A stretch of DNA of 6,274 nucleotides, from positions 1-6,274 of the IMG/VR virus record IMGVR_UViG_2703718849_000001; one strand, given 5' to 3'. This document shows, piece after piece, positions 1 to 6,274 of the stretch. Origin of the DNA: a virus. Taxonomy: Duplodnaviria > Heunggongvirae > Uroviricota > Caudoviricetes. A program made the translations under genes and the position numbers. The notes beneath the pieces are model-generated. The model was not told where the DNA came from. It worked only from the letters and a program-made list of their open reading frames with translations, and made no database searches. The stretch's first letter is position 1. Each line of letters starts with the position of its first letter.

Positions 1-97
1 ATGGTGTCCCCTGCAGACATCTACTTGAAGCGACAGGGGATTGATTGGAATGGTGTTTTTTAGATGTGAAAAATATTTTACCCGCTATTTTACCCAT
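1..97 (-). CDS. Possible 5' end of an integrase gene (N-terminal fragment running off the left edge)
   Basis: Minus-strand ATG at 97..95 opens a frame (MGKIAGKIFFTSKKHHSNQSPVASSRCLQGTP...) with no stop down to position 1. It overlaps the excisionase stop (92..90) by 8 nt, the usual xis-int arrangement. No clear Shine-Dalgarno; the integrase call is positional inference only. Confidence 0.3.
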   Translation of the reverse strand, partial: MGKIAGKIFFTSKKHHSNQSPVASSRCLQGTP

Positions 98-290
98 TGG
101 CGCGGCTTAAGAGCTTATTTTTGAATTCACAATGGTCACGATATAACCATCTTGCTCGCCCGTGGATAACTTTGGCTTTAGGCAGGTCTCCGGACTTAAT
201 CCGGTCATAGATGAAGGTTTTACCGAAGCCAGTATCGGCCATGATGAATTTCAAATCAACCAGGGAATCAGGCTGTAGTTCGTGTTGCAT
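90..290 (-). CDS. xis: AlpA-family excisionase / prophage DNA-binding regulator (66 aa)
   Basis: ATG at 290..288 with GGAG about 9 nt upstream, TAA at 92..90. The pattern ...LKFIMADTGFGKTFIYDRIKSGDLP...RWLYRD... fits the AlpA/Xis helix-turn-helix family signature as I recall it (TG-x5-IY ... LP ... W). Sits at the distal end of the leftward operon. Confidence 0.7.
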   Translation of the reverse strand: MQHELQPDSLVDLKFIMADTGFGKTFIYDRIKSGDLPKAKVIHGRARWLYRDHCEFKNKLLSRANG

Positions 291-330
291 GAGTGCTATC
301 TCCGAATAGGGAATCGAACCTGCAAATCAG

Positions 331-358
331 GCAATAAAAAACCGCCATCAGGCGGCTT
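331..358 (-). terminator. Rho-independent terminator candidate (minus strand)
   Basis: Stem ccgcc (342-346) / ggcgg (351-355) with 4-nt loop, followed on the minus strand by UUUUUUAUU (plus 333-341). The TGA stop of the small ORF 348..515 lies in the loop. Confidence 0.45.
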
Positions 359-515
359 GGTGTTCTTTCAGTTCTTCAATTCGAATATTGGTTACGTCTG
401 CATGCGCTATCTGCGCCCATATCATCCAGTGGTTATAGCAGTCGTTGATGTCCTCTGCTTCGATAACTCTGTTGAATGGTTCTCCATTCCATTCACCTGT
501 GACTCGGAAGTGCAT
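348..515 (-). CDS. Small hypothetical protein (55 aa), below the ORF-track cutoff
   Basis: Hand translation gives MHFRVTGEWNGEPFNRVIEAEDINDCYNHWMIWAQIAHADVTNIRIEELKEHQAA. ATG at 515..513 is preceded by GGAG with 7-nt spacing; TGA at 350..348. It occupies the slot between lar and xis where Rac carries ydaC (order recalled, not checked). Confidence 0.55.
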   Translation of the reverse strand: MHFRVTGEWNGEPFNRVIEAEDINDCYNHWMIWAQIAHADVTNIRIEELKEHQAA

Positions 516-523
516 TTATCATC

Positions 524-553
524 TCCATAAAACAAAACTCGCCGTAGCGAGTT
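524..553 (-). terminator. Hairpin plus U-tract, terminator candidate (minus strand)
   Basis: Stem aactcgc (536-542) / gcgagtt (547-553), loop cgta; on the minus strand it is followed by UUGUUUUAU, immediately upstream of the SD of the 348..515 ORF. Confidence 0.35.
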
Positions 554-615
554 CAGATAAAAGAAATCCCCGCGAGTGCGAGGATTGTTATTCACCTTTG
601 ACGGCAAGTTGCAGG

Positions 616-918
616 TTAGCCATGGTTAACCTCCTGCGGAGTAGCCTTTACAAGCACTGGTGTAAATCCATCTTCATTAAGGTTATGAATATAGACTTCC
701 GTTCTCCTGCGCTCTTCAGCGTTTAATATGGTTTCTGGATCATAAACCCATACTTTCATTCGACTATTCCATGAAGAAATCGCTTCAGATTTAGTTCGTT
801 TTTCTGGTCCTTGGGCACCACATTTGCATGACACATAGCGCATTTTCCCTCTGATACTGAATGAGTATCCGATGTTAAGCACAGTGGAACCACAGAATGG
901 GCAGCGATATAGATTCAT
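616..918 (-). CDS. lar: Lar-family restriction-alleviation protein (zinc ribbon), 100 aa
   Basis: ATG at 918..916 with AAGGTGG about 8 nt upstream, overlapping the upstream gene's TGA (ATGA). N-terminal CPFCG ... CKCGA two-CxxC motif and ISSWNSR match the Lar family as I recall it. Confidence 0.65.
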   Translation of the reverse strand: MNLYRCPFCGSTVLNIGYSFSIRGKMRYVSCKCGAQGPEKRTKSEAISSWNSRMKVWVYDPETILNAEERRRTEVYIHNLNEDGFTPVLVKATPQEVNHG

Positions 919-1511
919 AAATCATCCACCTTAGGCGCAGCTGAGACAGCAACATTCCAGAACTCAGAAAACATATTGTATGCACCAGATAGATTGGAAG
1001 TGGCATACCCTCCAAGCTCACTTCTAATCTGAACGGCTCTCATCATTTCCGGGGTTAACTCCTTCGGCACCATAACCCAACCATCCGGAATTACCGGAGA
1101 GTTGCCGGGTTCTTTAATGTGCAAGCGAGGCTCACCATCTTTTGGCTCAGGCCACTGGCGCTCCATGTTGATCTTCAATTTATCTTCCATAGCAGCGGTA
1201 ATTTCAGCATCGCTGATGCAAGCACGGCGCTGTGCATCCCACAACAGAAACTGCATATCAGCCCACTCGCTAAGATCGTCTGGTTCGGCTGCGGCTTCCA
1301 GTGCCTCTTTTGAGAGATGTTTCAGCGGACCAATGGGGCCAACGCAGCCAAATGTGGAGTCAGACCATTTGGCATGCTCGTGGCGAATCTGTTCGCGTTC
1401 CAGTGATGCCAGTGCAATCCGTGCCAGTTCCATTTGTTCGCCACGGGTAAGCCCGTTATCAAGCGGATTTTTAATGAATAATTCGATACGTTCTTTGGTA
1501 ATAGTGGTCAT
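915..1511 (-). CDS. Hypothetical phage protein (198 aa), acidic
   Basis: ATG at 1511..1509 with AAGGTGA SD at 9-nt spacing; long uninterrupted ORF; stop overlaps the lar start. No family recognised. Confidence 0.75.
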   Translation of the reverse strand: MTTITKERIELFIKNPLDNGLTRGEQMELARIALASLEREQIRHEHAKWSDSTFGCVGPIGPLKHLSKEALEAAAEPDDLSEWADMQFLLWDAQRRACISDAEITAAMEDKLKINMERQWPEPKDGEPRLHIKEPGNSPVIPDGWVMVPKELTPEMMRAVQIRSELGGYATSNLSGAYNMFSEFWNVAVSAAPKVDDL

Positions 1512-1513
1512 AG

Positions 1514-1705
1514 CTATTTCACCTTAATCTCAACATTTCGCAGCTTTAGCTCTACTGGCAGGTCTGACTTTCCTGTTAATGCTAATGCGAGATTTTCTGG
1601 GGTAATGAGAGCAGTTATTGCTTTCCCCATTGCCAGACGAATAATTATTCGTATTTCGCGATCGTCACATGCTCCTGGTAGAACGATTGATATTTGTCCG
1701 TCCAT
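1514..1705 (-). CDS. Hypothetical small protein (63 aa)
   Basis: ATG at 1705..1703 preceded by AGGAG (6-nt spacing) inside the end of the upstream gene; 1 nt separates the upstream TGA from this ATG, and its own TAG is 2 nt from the next ATG. Confidence 0.6.
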   Translation of the reverse strand: MDGQISIVLPGACDDREIRIIIRLAMGKAITALITPENLALALTGKSDLPVELKLRNVEIKVK

Positions 1706-1706
1706 C

Positions 1707-2114
1707 TCACTCTCCTTTGATGCGAATGCCTGCGGCGCGGATTGCAGCGATGACTTCAGAAACTTTGTATGCCATTACCGTTTGGTAATCATCGTGAAAA
1801 TCTGTTCGATGAAGCATGCTGCTACGTTCCGGGAGCGATATTTCCCGCGCTTCCAGTTCTGCAATGCGCTTTTTTGCTGCTTCCAGTTCATCCAGTAATT
1901 CCAGTACGGTAGCCGGATTAGCCTTGGCAACAAAATCCCGGACTGGCTTACAATCAATCTCCGCAATGGGTTGATACGATGTGTAGCCATGCTGTCTTGT
2001 ATAACTACCGTGACGAATAACAAAAAAATCACCATTTATTTTTTTAGCCTGCCACTTATCTTCACCGGCTTTCTCTGCCGCTTCACGCAGTGCCTGATAG
2101 TCAATCTTGTTCAT
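1707..2114 (-). CDS. Ead/Ea22-like family protein (135 aa)
   Basis: ATG at 2114..2112 with GGTGA SD. Central coiled-coil segment ATVLELLDELEAAKKRIAELEAR resembles the ead/Ea22-like proteins of lambdoid early-left regions (recollection). Confidence 0.7.
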   Translation of the reverse strand: MNKIDYQALREAAEKAGEDKWQAKKINGDFFVIRHGSYTRQHGYTSYQPIAEIDCKPVRDFVAKANPATVLELLDELEAAKKRIAELEAREISLPERSSMLHRTDFHDDYQTVMAYKVSEVIAAIRAAGIRIKGE

Positions 2115-2115
2115 G

Positions 2116-2415
2116 TCACATCACCCTGAATCCGTTGCATTTACGTAAGAAATCGCAGATATAGCCCTTCATTTTTTCATGACAATCTCGATCATTCCCA
2201 TTGCACCAACCATCAGGTGGAGTCCAGTTTTCTATCAGAGCAGCCATTTTCTTTGCTTTCGCCGGAGTAGCTGTTGCGGTATCGCAGTAATGACGAGTGT
2301 CAACCAACGCATCCATACCATCGATATCAAGTACGCAAAACCATGTGTGATTCGGAATTCCTACAGGTGGTATTTGTTGCCCACGTCGACGTTTATCAAT
2401 AAGATATACACTCAC
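2116..2415 (-). CDS. Hypothetical Cys-rich protein (99 aa from GTG)
   Basis: The ORF-track frame 2116..2436 begins with GTG at 2436; a second in-frame GTG at 2415..2413 is preceded by a perfect AGGAGG (2427..2422) with 6-nt spacing and overlaps the TGA of the upstream 55-aa ORF (GTGA). C-terminal C-x7-C-x9-C-x6-C spacing. Confidence 0.6.
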
Positions 2416-2579
2416 TGCTTGCCTCCTTTGCGCCACATCGCATTCAGATATTTGTTTTGATTTACTGACGGAAAAGAATTTCTCTTAAGCAATTCCTCTC
2501 TCGATGGCATTGGCTTTACGCGTTGGCGAATAATCATTTCTGCCGGAAGAATGCCGGGGTTGTATGCAAGTCCTCTCAT
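2412..2579 (-). CDS. Small hypothetical protein (55 aa), below the ORF-track cutoff
   Basis: Hand translation gives [58 protein letters not shown] at 2579..2577 overlaps the TGA of the upstream gene (ATGA) and has GGAG 6 nt upstream; its own TGA overlaps the downstream GTG start. It fills an otherwise empty 160-nt gap exactly. Confidence 0.5.
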
Positions 2580-2866
2580 GATTTACTCTCCACGAACTGG
2601 TCAATAGCCATGCTAAGTGACATACCTAAAGTCTCGATATGCTGCTGAATATCCTGTAGCGTCTGCGCCTGAGATAACAGGATTTCACGGTTGCATAACT
2701 CTTTAACCAGATGCTCAAACTTGCTGTAATAACCGATACGGCTTAGTGTTTCTTTCCCTGCATTCTCGCCTTCTTTGATAATTCCTCTTTCGCTAAGAAT
2801 CAGATCGTGTTTTGTTCCGGTAATAACGTATTTTCCGAGGTCGATGTTTAGCTTCATTGTTTTCAT
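2576..2866 (-). CDS. Hypothetical protein (96 aa)
   Basis: The 146-aa track ORF starts at TTG inside the upstream gene. The ATG at 2866..2864 ([14 protein letters not shown]...) lies 10 nt past the upstream TGA with GAGGA SD at 7-nt spacing, so the gene is trimmed to 2576..2866. Confidence 0.65.
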
Positions 2867-2876
2867 TGTTAATTCC

Positions 2877-3170
2877 TCAGTCATTACTGATAGCGCCATA
2901 GCGTGAGCGGTAATTACGCAGGCGCGGGTCGATTTCAGGGAAGTGGGTATATGTGGCTTTGCGGAATGGTCGGATTGATGTCTGGTAAATTCGCTCTCGT
3001 TCTTCTTTCTCTGCAAGCCATATGCAGTGGCGAAACTCCTTTTCCTCTTTCGTTTCCTGCGGTAGAGACATTATTCGATCGTAGTTTTTTCTGAATTTAT
3101 CCAGCACCTCCGATACGGAATTGCCGGAACAGCGGCGCGCGTCATCCGCACCATACAGAGGCGCTGGCAT
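2877..3170 (-). CDS. Hypothetical protein (97 aa), basic
   Basis: ATG at 3170..3168 with AAGGA SD about 8 nt upstream; TGA at 2879..2877. No family recognised. Confidence 0.65.
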   Translation of the reverse strand: MPAPLYGADDARRCSGNSVSEVLDKFRKNYDRIMSLPQETKEEKEFRHCIWLAEKEERERIYQTSIRPFRKATYTHFPEIDPRLRNYRSRYGAISND

Positions 3171-3193
3171 AATTAAATCCTTATTTTTCTAAA

Positions 3194-3577
3194 TCAGAAT
3201 GGGATGGAATCGTCGTATACAGGAGTGTTCTGCTGGTTACTACTTTGCTGCTGCGGGCCATTTCCTGAAGCTGCAAATCCAATCTTTGCATTCAGTAATT
3301 CAAGAGTGATTGATTGACAATTTTGCCCCTGATAAACATCAACCCTGATGTTTTCTCCGGTAATTTCCACAATGCCACCTTCAACAAGAACACTACGGTA
3401 GTAATCCGCTTGCGCTCCCGGCTTGGCAAATACAACGGCGCTGTAGTTTGTCCATTCTTTCTTTTTTGTCTGGCGATCGTAATGCTGAACTCCAGCACGG
3501 ATGTTGAATCCGATATTTTCCCCGGCCTGAAACTCTCTTGCGGGCTTGTTTAGTCTTACAGTAATCGAATGTGCCAT
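3194..3577 (-). CDS. ssb: Phage SSB-like single-stranded DNA-binding protein (127 aa) with acidic C-terminal tip
   Basis: C-terminus ...NTPVYDDSIPF matches the conserved SSB tail (E. coli SSB ends DDDIPF), preceded by a Gln/Ser-rich linker. The ATG at 3577..3575 (MAHSITV...) overlaps the Erf TAA (TAATG); the track's 157-aa version is an out-of-frame upstream extension. Confidence 0.75.
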   Translation of the reverse strand: MAHSITVRLNKPAREFQAGENIGFNIRAGVQHYDRQTKKKEWTNYSAVVFAKPGAQADYYRSVLVEGGIVEITGENIRVDVYQGQNCQSITLELLNAKIGFAASGNGPQQQSSNQQNTPVYDDSIPF

Positions 3578-4182
3578 TAAGCAGCAGCTCCTTCTAATTC
3601 GTCTCGTCTGATGTTGTAAACGTCCTGCGCTTTGTGCTGCTCCGGTGTGCCTTCGAGCATCTTCCACGCTTTGGCGAACGCCTGTTTAAGCTCTTCTACG
3701 GTGTTTTTCTGCATTGCTGCGTCAGTGAATGCTTTTAGAACCTGTTCAGGTGTAGGTAATGGTTTTGATTGCTTTGCTGCTGCGTTCTGCTGATGTTTAT
3801 GCTCGTCGGTATCTGCATCTTTCGCATCATCAATGCCGAATAAACCATTGAGGCAATACTTGCGTGCATAAGAGCTTGTAGCTCCCGTAACTTGTGCAGA
3901 ATCCATTCCTTTCTTGCTTTCTTCCTCTCGTGCAAGAGCGGTTGCTTTATGACTGTTTTCGCCATCAGTAATAGTTGCCGTTGCTTTCACGTAATACCGA
4001 TCACCAATCAACACAACTTCATCGCTGATTGATAAAAACAGGCCATTCAGTAACGGCTTAACACCCTCAAGAATGTCTTCGCAGCTTCTGTATTTATATT
4101 TGCCGAATGAGTTGTATTGATTCTTTGGCGCGTTCAGATTCTCCTGAATAGCTGCCAGCCTTGCGTAAAATTCTTTGCTCAT
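3577..4182 (-). CDS. erf: Erf-family single-strand annealing recombinase (201 aa)
   Basis: From the ATG at 4182..4180 the protein begins MSKEFYARLAAIQENLNAPKNQYNSFGKYKYRSCEDILEGVKPLL..., which matches my recollection of P22 Erf. The track's start is a TTG at 4212, 10 codons upstream. TAA overlaps the ssb start. Confidence 0.8.
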   Translation of the reverse strand: MSKEFYARLAAIQENLNAPKNQYNSFGKYKYRSCEDILEGVKPLLNGLFLSISDEVVLIGDRYYVKATATITDGENSHKATALAREEESKKGMDSAQVTGATSSYARKYCLNGLFGIDDAKDADTDEHKHQQNAAAKQSKPLPTPEQVLKAFTDAAMQKNTVEELKQAFAKAWKMLEGTPEQHKAQDVYNIRRDELEGAAA

Positions 4183-4283
4183 ATGTTTGTTCTCAGAATG
4201 GACATTCCCCAAGGAAATAACGCTGATTTAATACTTCGACTCGGGACAAATTAAGGCATACCCGCATTCCTTCGCGGTCGCCA

Positions 4284-4442
4284 TTATGGCGATGCCAGAG
4301 AGCTTTCTGCGTGTACATGCGTCTCTGTAACTTGCTCTCCTTCACTGTGGTTGCAAGTGACATGAATATCTCCTTCGTTACCGATTAATTCTTTCATCTG
4401 ACGAATGAATTCTTCGTCTGACCAGTTATCTGTAAAACTCAT
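4284..4442 (-). CDS. Small acidic hypothetical peptide (52 aa) between kil and erf
   Basis: Hand translation gives MSFTDNWSDEEFIRQMKELIGNEGDIHVTCNHSEGEQVTETHVHAESSLASP. ATG at 4442..4440 overlaps the kil TGA (ATGA); TAA at 4286..4284. No SD beyond the coupling; function unknown. Confidence 0.4.
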   Translation of the reverse strand: MSFTDNWSDEEFIRQMKELIGNEGDIHVTCNHSEGEQVTETHVHAESSLASP

Positions 4443-4591
4443 TTCCTGCGATACCACGGAAGGTTGATAGCTGATTTCATCGCTTTATTTGCTTCAAGCC
4501 ACATTTTTGAATCACCAATAAATCTGGCTATTACTGCTTTGTTCTGTGCAGCACGAAGCATCTGGTGATTGATGGCTATTTCATTGCGCAT
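4439..4591 (-). CDS. kil: Kil-like host cell-division inhibitor peptide (50 aa)
   Basis: Hand translation gives MRNEIAINHQMLRAAQNKAVIARFIGDSKMWLEANKAMKSAINLPWYRRK. The IA-x-FIGD-x-KM segment and the position directly downstream of, and overlapping, cIII fit lambda Kil as I recall it. GGAGG lies 4 nt upstream of the ATG at 4591. Confidence 0.5.
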   Translation of the reverse strand: MRNEIAINHQMLRAAQNKAVIARFIGDSKMWLEANKAMKSAINLPWYRRK

Positions 4592-4710
4592 AACGCCTCC
4601 AGTTGTTTCTTTGCTGCTCTGATTAATTGTTTAACTCGGCGTGATAATTCAGATTCGTGCGGGTAGAAAGCGGACATGACGCCGCTACCCGCGAGCTGAA
4701 AGTGCATCAT
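4576..4710 (-). CDS. cIII: CIII-like FtsH inhibitor peptide (44 aa)
   Basis: Hand translation gives MMHFQLAGSGVMSAFYPHESELSRRVKQLIRAAKKQLEALCAMK. GGAG lies 6 nt upstream of the ATG at 4710. The N-terminus and the central amphipathic helix ESELSRRVKQLIR align with lambda CIII (MQYAIAG...ESLLERITRKLRD, from memory). Confidence 0.6.
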   Translation of the reverse strand: MMHFQLAGSGVMSAFYPHESELSRRVKQLIRAAKKQLEALCAMK

Positions 4711-4740
4711 GGGTAACTCCTTATATTTGATTGCATAACG

Positions 4741-4765
4741 AAAACGCCTCAAGTGAAGCGTTATT
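4741..4765 (-). terminator. Hairpin plus U-tract, terminator candidate (minus strand) between ea10 and cIII
   Basis: Minus-strand RNA forms an 8-bp stem AACGCUUC / GAGGCGUU (one G-U wobble), loop ACUU, followed by UUCGUUAU. The plus-strand RNA would have a mismatch instead, so the structure is strand-specific. Confidence 0.35.
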
Positions 4766-4785
4766 GGTATGCGGTAAAGCCGCGC

Positions 4786-5154
4786 TCAGGCGGCTTTGAT
4801 AGTCATATCATCTGAATCAAATATTCCTGATGTATCGATATCGGTAATTCTTATTCCTTCACTACCATCCATTGGAGGCCATCCTTCCTGACCATTTCCA
4901 TCATCCCAGTCGAACTCACAAACAACACCATATGCATTTAAGTCTTTCGAAATTGCTATAAGCAGAGCATGTTGCGCCAGCATGATTAATACAGCATTTA
5001 ATACAGCGCCGTGTTTATTGAGTCGGTATTCAGAGTCTGACCAGAAATTATTAATCTGGTGAAGTTTTTCCTCTGTCATTACGTCATGGTCGATTTCAAT
5101 TTCTATTGATGCTTTCCAGTCGTAATCAATGATGTATTTTTTGATGTTTGACAT
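4786..5154 (-). CDS. ea10: Ea10-like early-left protein (122 aa)
   Basis: ATG at 5154..5152 with GAGGA SD at 9-nt spacing; 122 aa, the size and position of lambda Ea10 between ral and cIII. Sequence identity to Ea10 is recollection only. Confidence 0.6.
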   Translation of the reverse strand: MSNIKKYIIDYDWKASIEIEIDHDVMTEEKLHQINNFWSDSEYRLNKHGAVLNAVLIMLAQHALLIAISKDLNAYGVVCEFDWDDGNGQEGWPPMDGSEGIRITDIDTSGIFDSDDMTIKAA

Positions 5155-5171
5155 CTATTCATATCCTCATA

Positions 5172-5200
5172 GATAAAAAATCGCCCTCACACTGGAGGGC
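5172..5200 (-). terminator. Rho-independent terminator candidate (minus strand) upstream of ea10
   Basis: Minus-strand stem GCCCUC / GAGGGC (plus 5183-5188 / 5195-5200), 6-nt loop, followed by GAUUUUUUAUCU. The plus-strand downstream flank is A/G-rich, so it is orientation-specific. Confidence 0.5.
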
Positions 5201-5295
5201 AAAGAAGATTTCCAATAATCAGAACAAGTCGGCTCCTGTTTAGTTACGAGCGACATTGCTCCGTGTATTCACTCGTTGGAATGAATACACAGTGC

Positions 5296-5508
5296 TTATT
5301 CGCGAGCTTTGAGCATGGCATCAGCAATAAAGTAGGCATCATCTGCTAATTCTTTGTACTGTGGTGAATTCTGTCCACCGCCAAAGGAATGTCCGTCCCA
5401 TCTGCGCACTATTGCTGCCATAGCCTTAGCAGCGAAGTAATCACGTAATGTCGCATCACTTGCCATTTCTGGGCGTTTGATATCTGCTTCATAAAACTCG
5501 CACATCAT
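5296..5508 (-). CDS. Hypothetical protein (70 aa)
   Basis: Tandem ATG ATG at 5508..5503 preceded by GGAGGTGA; the first ATG overlaps the TGA of the upstream 44-aa ORF (ATGA). No family recognised. Confidence 0.6.
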   Translation of the reverse strand: MMCEFYEADIKRPEMASDATLRDYFAAKAMAAIVRRWDGHSFGGGQNSPQYKELADDAYFIADAMLKARE

Positions 5509-5639
5509 TCACCTCCAAGAGCATTTGCAGCCTCTTTTGCTTTGTGAATCCATAGCAGAGCCATGCAGTACACAGCCTTTTCGTCGGCTCCTGTGATATC
5601 TTGCTCTGCCATCCATTTTGTAAATTCAACTGTGTTCAT
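5505..5639 (-). CDS. Small hypothetical protein (44 aa), below the ORF-track cutoff
   Basis: Hand translation gives MNTVEFTKWMAEQDITGADEKAVYCMALLWIHKAKEAANALGGE. ATG at 5639..5637 with GAGGTGA just upstream; TGA overlaps the start of the 70-aa gene. Confidence 0.45.
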   Translation of the reverse strand: MNTVEFTKWMAEQDITGADEKAVYCMALLWIHKAKEAANALGGE

Positions 5640-5660
5640 ATTCACCTCTGTTGTTTATGC

Positions 5661-5688
5661 CAAAAATAAAGGCCACCATCAGGCAGCC
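5661..5688 (-). terminator. Rho-independent terminator candidate (minus strand) immediately after ral
   Basis: Minus-strand RNA: GGCUGCC-UGAU-GGUGGCC (7 bp including two G-U wobbles) followed by UUUAUUUUUGG. The ral TGA (5681..5679) sits in the loop. The plus-strand RNA would have C-A mismatches. Confidence 0.5.
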
Positions 5689-5879
5689 TTGTTATTCTGT
5701 TTACCAAGTTCTCTGGCAATCATTGCCGTCGTTCGTATTGCCCATTTATCGACATATTTCCCATCTTCCATTACATGAAACATTTCTTCAGGCTTAACCA
5801 TGCATTCCGATTGCAGCTTGCATCCATTGCATCGCTTGAATTGTCCACACCATTGATTTGTATCAATAGTCGTAGTCAT
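5679..5879 (-). CDS. ral: Restriction-alleviation protein Ral (66 aa)
   Basis: MTTTIDTNQWCGQFKRCNGCKLQSECMVKPEEMFHVMEDGKYVDKWAIRTTAMIARELGKQNNKAA is near-identical to lambda Ral as I recall it, and of the same length. ATG at 5879..5877. Confidence 0.85.
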   Translation of the reverse strand: MTTTIDTNQWCGQFKRCNGCKLQSECMVKPEEMFHVMEDGKYVDKWAIRTTAMIARELGKQNNKAA

Positions 5880-5949
5880 ACGGATAGTCCTGGTATTGTT
5901 CCATCACATCCTGAGGATGCTCTTCGAACTCTTCAAATTCTTCTTCCAT
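5863..5949 (-). CDS. Orf28-like acidic peptide (28 aa) overlapping the ral start
   Basis: Hand translation gives MEEEFEEFEEHPQDVMEQYQDYPYDYDY. ATG at 5949..5947 with GAGGTGA upstream; TGA at 5865..5863, overlapping ral by 17 nt. This matches the lambda orf28/ral arrangement as I remember it. Confidence 0.35.
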   Translation of the reverse strand: MEEEFEEFEEHPQDVMEQYQDYPYDYDY

Positions 5950-5957
5950 ATCTCACC

Positions 5958-6274
5958 TCAAATAAGTGGTTTGCTGCCTAATTTCATTTTCTGGCGACCA
6001 ACACAAGTCACCCCCATTTCACTGCGTGGCTTGCTGTACCATGTGCGCTGATTCTTGCGCTCAATACGTTGCAGGTTGCTTTCAATCTGTTCGTGGTATT
6101 CAGCCAGCACTGTAAGGTCTATCGGATTCAGTGCGCTTTCTACTCGTGATTTCGGTTTGCGATTCAGCGAGAGAATAGGGCGGTTAACTGGTTTTGCGCT
6201 TACCCCAACCAACAGGGGATTTGCTGCTTTCCATTGAGCCTGTTTCTCTGCGCGACGTTCGCGGCGGCGTGTTT
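5958..6274 (-). CDS. N: Antitermination protein N (5' end truncated by the window edge; about 4 codons missing)
   Basis: The minus-strand frame is open from 6272 down to the stop at 5960..5958: TRRRERRAEKQAQWKAANPLLVGVSAKPVNRPILSLNRKPKSRVESALNPIDLTVLAEYHEQIESNLQRIERKNQRTWYSKP...PLI. The arginine-rich motif and most of the sequence match lambda N (MDAQTRRRERRAEKQAQWKAANPLL...); the C-terminal roughly 25 residues diverge. The track's TTG start at 6212 is an artefact. Confidence 0.9.
   Translation of the reverse strand, partial: TRRRERRAEKQAQWKAANPLLVGVSAKPVNRPILSLNRKPKSRVESALNPIDLTVLAEYHEQIESNLQRIERKNQRTWYSKPRSEMGVTCVGRQKMKLGSKPLI

Follow-up and report, generated by a model that had tools for sequence, protein, structure and literature searches.

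Hairpins and genes of the leftward operon

We analysed positions 1 to 6,274 of the IMG/VR virus record IMGVR_UViG_2703718849_000001 (the window, 6,274 nt), in which every plausible gene is encoded by the minus strand. Judged by its gene content and sequence matches, the window belongs to a lambdoid mosaic phage and is its early leftward (pL) operon, in which a lambda-type N-ral-ea10-cIII segment is joined to recombination and xis modules of the Sf6/HK620 type (table 1). As originally predicted, a lambda-type N opens the leftward operon at its promoter-proximal end, according to both blast and translation: the encoded sequence (TRRRERRAEKQAQWKAANPLL...) stops at the TGA at 5958–5960, and the arginine-rich boxB-binding motif (TRRRERRAEKQAQWKAAN...) is present at the right end of the window. 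Seven hairpins interrupt the operon downstream of N, and we put at about 85% the probability that they represent Rho-independent terminators of the pL operon inherited from lambda-like ancestors.

The original prediction comprised five hairpins followed by U-tracts, which would resemble terminators only in leftward transcription. A consensus scan located all five on the minus strand, with T-rich tails, and returned one further terminator-like site, at 565–586, that had been missing from that list; the six stems run, in the direction of transcription, over 5690–5669, 5202–5181, 4762–4743, 586–565, 554–535 and 358–339. The stems are G+C-rich, with 8–9 pairs including 4–5 G-C pairs, and the predicted minus-strand folds range from -9.9 to -13.9 kcal/mol (z-scores from -2.0 to -5.5). 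Folding of the plus strand is weaker (-8.4 to -12.0 kcal/mol), with no U-tract behind any of the structures, so the leftward-only character held up. A U-tract directly 3' of the stem exists at all six sites, although it is only moderate at 4743–4762 (UUUUCGUUAU), and it is lacking at the seventh hairpin, the additional repeat reported at the ea10 stop codon (4776–4797), which is indeed an exact inverted repeat (8+8 nt) with the TGA (4786–4788) in its loop. G-U wobbles specific to the minus-strand RNA do occur as had been proposed, but they are present in all stems rather than confined to two; their effect is greatest at 5669–5690 (-13.9 kcal/mol, against -8.5 kcal/mol for the plus-strand version). 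The hairpins had likewise been described as entirely intergenic, which does not apply to 5669–5690 and 339–358, where the final codons of ral and of the open reading frame (ORF) at 348–515, respectively, make up the 5' arm.

To evaluate every position on both strands, we used a score of the d'Aubenton-Carafa type that combines the weight of the U-tract with the hairpin energy per nucleotide. On the minus strand five sites score above 0, on the plus strand none (best value there -7.8), and 60 dinucleotide-preserving shuffles of the window yielded no site above 0 (best -0.5). The same scan of lambda, which served as a positive control, recovered the sites of tL2a and tL2b, sites at 33145–33162 and 31265–31287, which we take to be tL2c and tL3, and the counterparts of the left-hand cluster described below. 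Five of the elements are also present in Sf6. Minus-strand non-coding sequence amounts to only 458 nt in all (7% of the window), and the hairpins are concentrated in its longer gaps: each of the five gaps of at least 39 nt holds at least one hairpin, all seven hairpins are found in or at these gaps, and gaps of up to 23 nt contain none. The stretch of about 4.1 kb from cIII to the Lar-like gene is devoid of terminator-like sites. The hairpin set is thus real and far beyond chance, and its members are supported by their sequence as orientation-specific intrinsic-terminator motifs of the leftward operon. An Rfam scan (E ≤ 1) found nothing at gathering score; a Leu_leader hit on the plus strand at 533–591 (20.8 bits, where the threshold is 50; E = 0.84) was dismissed as a chance likeness to the terminator hairpins.

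Table 1. Features of the window, by class. Energies refer to predicted minus-strand RNA folds; arrows give the direction of transcription.
Feature	Position	Strand	Energy (kcal/mol)	Score	Remarks
ral-stop hairpin (ralT)	5669–5690	-	-13.9	15.2	with tail UAUUUUUGGC (5668->5659) 5659–5690; ral stop codon (5679–5681) in loop
Hairpin 5' of PreS	5262–5295	-	-20.2		14 pairs; identical in lambda
PreS (LPR1) homologue	5174–5261 (5261->5174)	-			88 nt; 3' end is tL2a hairpin plus U-tail
tL2a	5181–5202	-	-12.9	22.4	with tail UUUUUUAUCU 5171–5202; identical to lambda 33931–33952
ea10-stop repeat	4776–4797	-	-12.4	-22.5	rank seventh; in tandem with tL2b; ea10 TGA in loop; UUU followed by ACCGC, no real U-tract
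tL2b	4743–4762	-	-9.9	-10.2	rank sixth; with tail UUCGUUAUGC 4733–4762; 32 nt upstream of cIII start (4710)
hpC	565–586	-	-13.1 (z -5.5)	12.7	with tail UCUUUUAUCU 555–586; lambda t3 (29335–29356)
hpB	535–554	-	-11.9	15.7	with tail UGUUUUAUGG 525–554; lambda t4 (29305–29324)
hpA	339–358	-	-13.0	31.9	best score in window; with tail UUUAUUGCCU 329–358; lambda t5 (29109–29128)
N, 3' part	5958–6274	-			lambda-type; cut by window end; promoter-proximal gene; 93.5% nucleotide identity with lambda 35062–35350 (blast)
orf28	5863–5949	-
ral	5679–5879	-
Small ORF, phrog_24660	5505–5639	-			44 amino acids; no known function; in insert 5296–5646
Small ORF, phrog_2201-like	5296–5508	-			70 amino acids; no known function; in insert 5296–5646
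ea10	4786–5154	-			DUF2528
cIII	4576–4710	-
kil	4439–4591	-
Two small ORFs	between kil and erf	-			HK97 gp42-like
erf	3577–4212	-
PHROG-44 ORF	3194–3577	-			127 amino acids; PHROG 44 is annotated as single-strand DNA binding protein
abc2	2877–3170	-
Several DUF genes, Ea22-like gene, dATP/dGTP pyrophosphohydrolase gene	between abc2 and Lar-like gene	-
Lar-like gene	616–918	-
ORF 348–515	348–515	-			55 amino acids; phrog_676; matches lambda lambdap35
Excisionase gene	90–290	-			TorI-type (xis-like)
Lambda match	5983–6274				lambda 35062–35350 (blast)
Lambda match	5647–5974				lambda 34055–34381 (blast)
Lambda match	4734–5295				lambda 33483–34045 (blast)
Lambda match	328–591				lambda 29098–29361 (blast)

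Counterparts in lambda and related phages

For every hairpin, alignment with lambda shows an equivalent at the corresponding position. In the GenBank record of Sf6, the spot homologous to tL2a is labelled 'terminator, homology to lambda tL2A', and in lambda the hairpin constitutes the 3' end of PreS, originally LPR1, an Hfq-dependent small RNA (sRNA) of about 88 nt that is processed to about 68 nt, is located between ral and ea10, appears in the lytic cycle, raises translation of dnaN and aids replication of phage DNA (bioRxiv 10.1101/2024.10.31.621285). With its ends set by the primer sequences that Table S5 of the same preprint lists, the sRNA sequence is found complete in the window: all 88 positions are identical to lambda 34011->33924, from GAGCAAUG... 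to the U-tail of tL2a, including an intact seed region (…CUUGUUCUGAUUAUUGG…). Its position upstream of ea10 is the same as well, whereas its upstream neighbour is an insert and not ral. We therefore read tL2a as a terminator that doubles as the Hfq-binding 3' end of PreS, a role documented for it in lambda. The hairpin directly 5' of PreS marks the upstream edge of a conserved module (homology breakpoints occur at 5290–5309) and may be a processing structure or one that defines the 5' end of the sRNA. For annotation it is of value that a mosaic phage carries an intact copy of this host-manipulating sRNA, reported in 2024. The known prophage sRNAs AgvB/AsxR and PasA-D were considered and set aside because their place is the late PR'/Q region, outside the pL operon.

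At the opposite end of the operon, three hairpins are gathered within 260 bp upstream of the xis-like gene. They differ by 1–2 substitutions from the lambda terminators t3–t5 of the exo-xis region, which in lambda are in silico (ARNold) predictions only (Bloch et al. 2014, Table 4, PMC4195576), and they flank the same 55-amino-acid ORF just upstream of xis/pI, hpB being located directly before the Shine-Dalgarno sequence of this ORF and hpA enclosing its stop codon (348–350) in the loop. The surroundings differ in that the upstream neighbour is the Lar-like gene in the window phage and ea8.5 in lambda, and the excisionase is of the TorI/HK620 type rather than lambda xis. The cluster ends at a sequence related to the cII site of pI: the segment 306–338 has, directly after the U-tract of hpA, TTGCCTGATTTGC, which matches the cII-binding site of lambda pI (TTGCGTGTAATTGC) with a spacer one base shorter, and the Sf6 record annotates the homologous spot just downstream of hpA as 'pI', a possible promoter for integrase expression. 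The two upstream members, hpC and hpB, form a tandem (525–586, minus strand) of two hairpins with a U-rich linker and a U-tail that resembles an Hfq-binding module; the unit shows a mean column identity of 95% among 20 distinct variants, and the sequence just upstream of it is mosaic.

The lambda counterpart of tL2b, at 33493–33512, differs from the window sequence in one loop base and one U of the tail. The name tL2b for this lambda site is reportedly that used by Luk & Szybalski (1983, Virology 125:403). Together with the adjacent ea10-stop repeat, tL2b is predicted to form a two-hairpin fold of -28.4 kcal/mol (z -5.7). Lambda-type variants of the repeat have A-U and G-C pairs replaced by G-U wobbles that pair in the minus-strand RNA only, and some other variants break a pair. 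The overall arrangement is that of the lambda tL2 cluster, with the same synteny (ral ... tL2a - ea10 - tL2b - cIII), the same orientation and a lambda-type N upstream; the differences are an insert of 350 bp (5296–5646) between ral and the tL2a/PreS module and the absence from the window phage of the gam/kil-internal lambda site (33145–33162) and of tL3, both missing because erf, an ssb-like gene and abc2 stand in place of red/gam. In one relative (IMG/VR contig 3300001149_000060), CCTGCAGGGGGGGGGGAAAGCCACGTTGTGTCTC... breaks up the tL2b hairpin downstream of ea10; this insertion has the look of a junction with a cloning vector or cassette, not of natural phage sequence.

After N, the ral-stop hairpin is the first structure of the window phage that resembles a terminator. 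Its lambda counterpart (34080–34095) carries two substitutions and folds to only -5.8 kcal/mol versus -16.8 kcal/mol in the same context. The lambda segment with sieB and tL1 (34382–35061) is absent from the window, so that only 8 nt separate the stop codon of N from the start of orf28. In relatives, sieB accompanies none of the 23 loci with the strong ral-stop variant and 4 of the 16 with the weak one; an interpretation of the strong hairpin as compensation for the loss of tL1/sieB was not retained, as it is indistinguishable from simple linkage.

Relatives were sampled as 160 IMG/VR loci, 80 around homologues of ea10 and 80 around homologues of ORF 348–515. In tL2b, a compensatory change from C-G to U-A occurs in six distinct sequences, with the U-G intermediate also seen, and the stem of hpB changes almost exclusively to wobbles valid in the minus-strand RNA only (13 changes keep pairing and one breaks it). 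The loops of tL2a (about sixfold) and hpC vary more than their stems (a range of 6–8 times). The relatives also inform on module boundaries. Breakpoints of homology between the 160 loci and the window cluster at 320–339, 4730–4739 and 5640–5649, i.e. just past U-tracts, and exchangeable modules of the mosaic therefore end at the terminators; further clusters, at 590–599 and 5290–5309, correspond to the upstream edges of modules. This pattern is matched by the Sf6 record, where the features bsq2 and bsq4 ('boundary sequence') overlap hairpin-bearing stretches. Terminators thus mark points of module exchange and may aid in reading maps of mosaic prophages.

Probable termination by the hairpins and alternative explanations

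The ability of N-modified RNA polymerase to read through terminators of this kind is established lambda biology, and the presence of a lambda-type N as the first gene of the operon suggests that the same system operates here. A relative that is 98% identical over 72% of the window has the lambda nutL boxB (GCCCTGAAGAAGGGC) about 200 nt upstream of N, and the Sf6 record annotates both nutL and pL. Under the terminator interpretation, unmodified RNA polymerase starting from pL would stop in three clusters: at the ral-stop hairpin followed by tL2a, at the pair between ea10 and cIII (the ea10-stop repeat and tL2b), and, about 4.1 kb further, at the triple barrier formed by hpC, hpB and hpA before the xis-like gene. 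Once N and the host Nus factors have modified it at nutL, the polymerase would pass every one of them, so that ea10, cIII/kil and the recombination and excision genes are expected, by homology with lambda, to depend on N. At tL2a, termination would also generate the end of PreS, which up-regulates the host dnaN in lambda. The triple barrier may insulate the excision functions from transcription that is not antiterminated, leaving Xis silent unless N is made.

Translation would probably modulate this scheme. Three hairpins, those of ral, ea10 and ORF 348–515 (5669–5690, 4776–4797 and 339–358), hold the TGA of the upstream ORF in their loops. When a stop codon was moved to 5 bp upstream of a terminator, termination fell from about 90% to less than 10%, and uncoupling translation restored it (PMC4824070). 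A ribosome finishing the upstream ORF would similarly hinder folding of the hairpin, and the three sites, probably weakened as long as that ORF is translated, would therefore terminate mainly those transcripts that are untranslated or uncoupled. The 5' arms of these hairpins contain two alanine codons (GCY GCC). A C-terminal -Ala-Ala is encoded by 4 of the 22 ORFs, namely those for Ral, Ea10, the 55-amino-acid protein and Erf (near 3577); such ends could be a by-product of a G+C-rich stem in the coding end, or an ssrA-like degradation signal.

Several observations weigh against this interpretation or limit it. The ral-stop hairpin is not structurally conserved: among distinct variants, pairing is lost at 9 of 11 changed pairs, and a variant with two mismatches is found in lambda and in 16 of the 39 related loci that carry the element. 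The two members of the ea10-cIII pair are weak motifs, given the score of tL2b (-10.2) and the missing U-tract of the repeat. When all elements are pooled, stem changes that break a pair are about as frequent as those that keep it (26 and 23, respectively), and covariation support for the hairpins is modest; a formal covariation analysis of the elements in close relatives returned one compensatory pair only, its power being low because all relatives are close (93–95% column identity). In addition, nutL and pL lie beyond the edge of the window, and, as lambda's tL1/sieB segment is missing between N and ral, gating here would depart from the lambda scheme in its details, with the ral-stop hairpin as the first candidate site.

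Could the hairpins be something other than terminators? One alternative, that inverted repeats arose by chance beside T-rich stretches, draws on the lax criteria of the consensus scan, under which about 6 sites per shuffled window are expected, and on weak sites within coding sequence (e.g. 4057–4042) that do look like chance; we give it virtually no credence, since the controls on shuffled and opposite-strand sequence refute it, since all sites are restricted to the small non-coding fraction of the window, and since the hairpins show conservation in lambda, in Sf6 and across hundreds of contigs in IMG/VR. It is also very improbable that the hairpin segments serve mainly as recombination 'boundary sequences' between lambdoid phages, with the hairpins being incidental. 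The gathering of breakpoints at the edges of hairpin-bearing segments, the labels of bsq2 and bsq4 in Sf6 and the different cargo found in different phages between the ral-stop hairpin and PreS are all in its favour; however, a recombination linker needs no strand-specific hairpin with a U-tract, and all seven hairpins follow the operon, none being opposed to it. Moreover, the changes that are compensatory or yield only wobbles indicate selection at the level of the RNA, and an exchange of complete transcription units would be expected to leave boundaries just after terminators.

More deserving of attention, yet still improbable, is a mainly post-transcriptional role, in which the hairpins would protect the 3' ends of processed mRNA and provide the 3' modules of Hfq-binding sRNAs, with little gating. 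It would account for the fact that lambda tL2a is the 3' end of an abundant Hfq-bound lytic sRNA made while N is active, for the strong conserved hairpin at the 5' end of PreS, for the hpC-linker-hpB unit, whose succession of a stem-loop, a U-rich linker and a terminator is typical of Hfq-binding architecture, and for the stop-in-loop hairpins, expected to be poor terminators under coupled translation. Against it, the U-tracts are conserved, and these are required for termination, not for protection from exonucleases. The sites tL2a/b and tL3 were reportedly defined as lambda termination sites by Luk & Szybalski in 1982–83. RIL-seq in lambda flagged LPR1, LPR2 and 6S as the only sRNAs, none of them from the other hairpin sites, and the accessible part of the preprint's supplementary RIL-seq tables holds nothing usable on Hfq-bound RNAs from the xis/ea8.5, ral and cIII regions (bioRxiv 10.1101/2024.10.31.621285). 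A post-transcriptional role and termination are, in any case, not mutually exclusive. An extension of the terminator interpretation that we regard as unlikely but worth stating is that modules other than tL2a also do more than stop polymerase: the segment 586->525 would be a second Hfq-binding RNA, and/or termination would be gated by translation independently of N, in which case read-through could be set by ribosome occupancy of the preceding small ORF (ral, ea10 or ORF 348–515).

The hairpins as terminators, their function and the regulatory logic have all been described for lambda, so the finding, though correct, is an ordinary one that leaves current understanding unchanged. What it does illustrate is that the classical layout of lambdoid pL terminators can be recovered by reading the letters alone, without tools.

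Mosaic make-up of the window

The four segments that match lambda are each 93–97% identical to it (blast). Among the records of the phage and E. coli collections, none spans at least 80% of the window, and we therefore regard it as an unrecorded mosaic of a lambdoid/P22-like phage; the best partial records are Sf6 (51% of the window), HK633 and E. coli prophages (up to 75%). The module at 3186–4191, to which the PHROG-44 ORF after erf belongs, is shared with neither Sf6 nor lambda, and the 127-amino-acid product of this ORF matches no Pfam family. The insert at 5296–5646 occupies a place where lambda has 9 bp, between the ral-stop hairpin and PreS. It is shared by 1 of the 80 related ea10 loci, and other genes are found there in Sf6 and E. 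coli strain 167, so that, from the sequences compared, this position looks like a slot for variable cargo with a terminator on either side.

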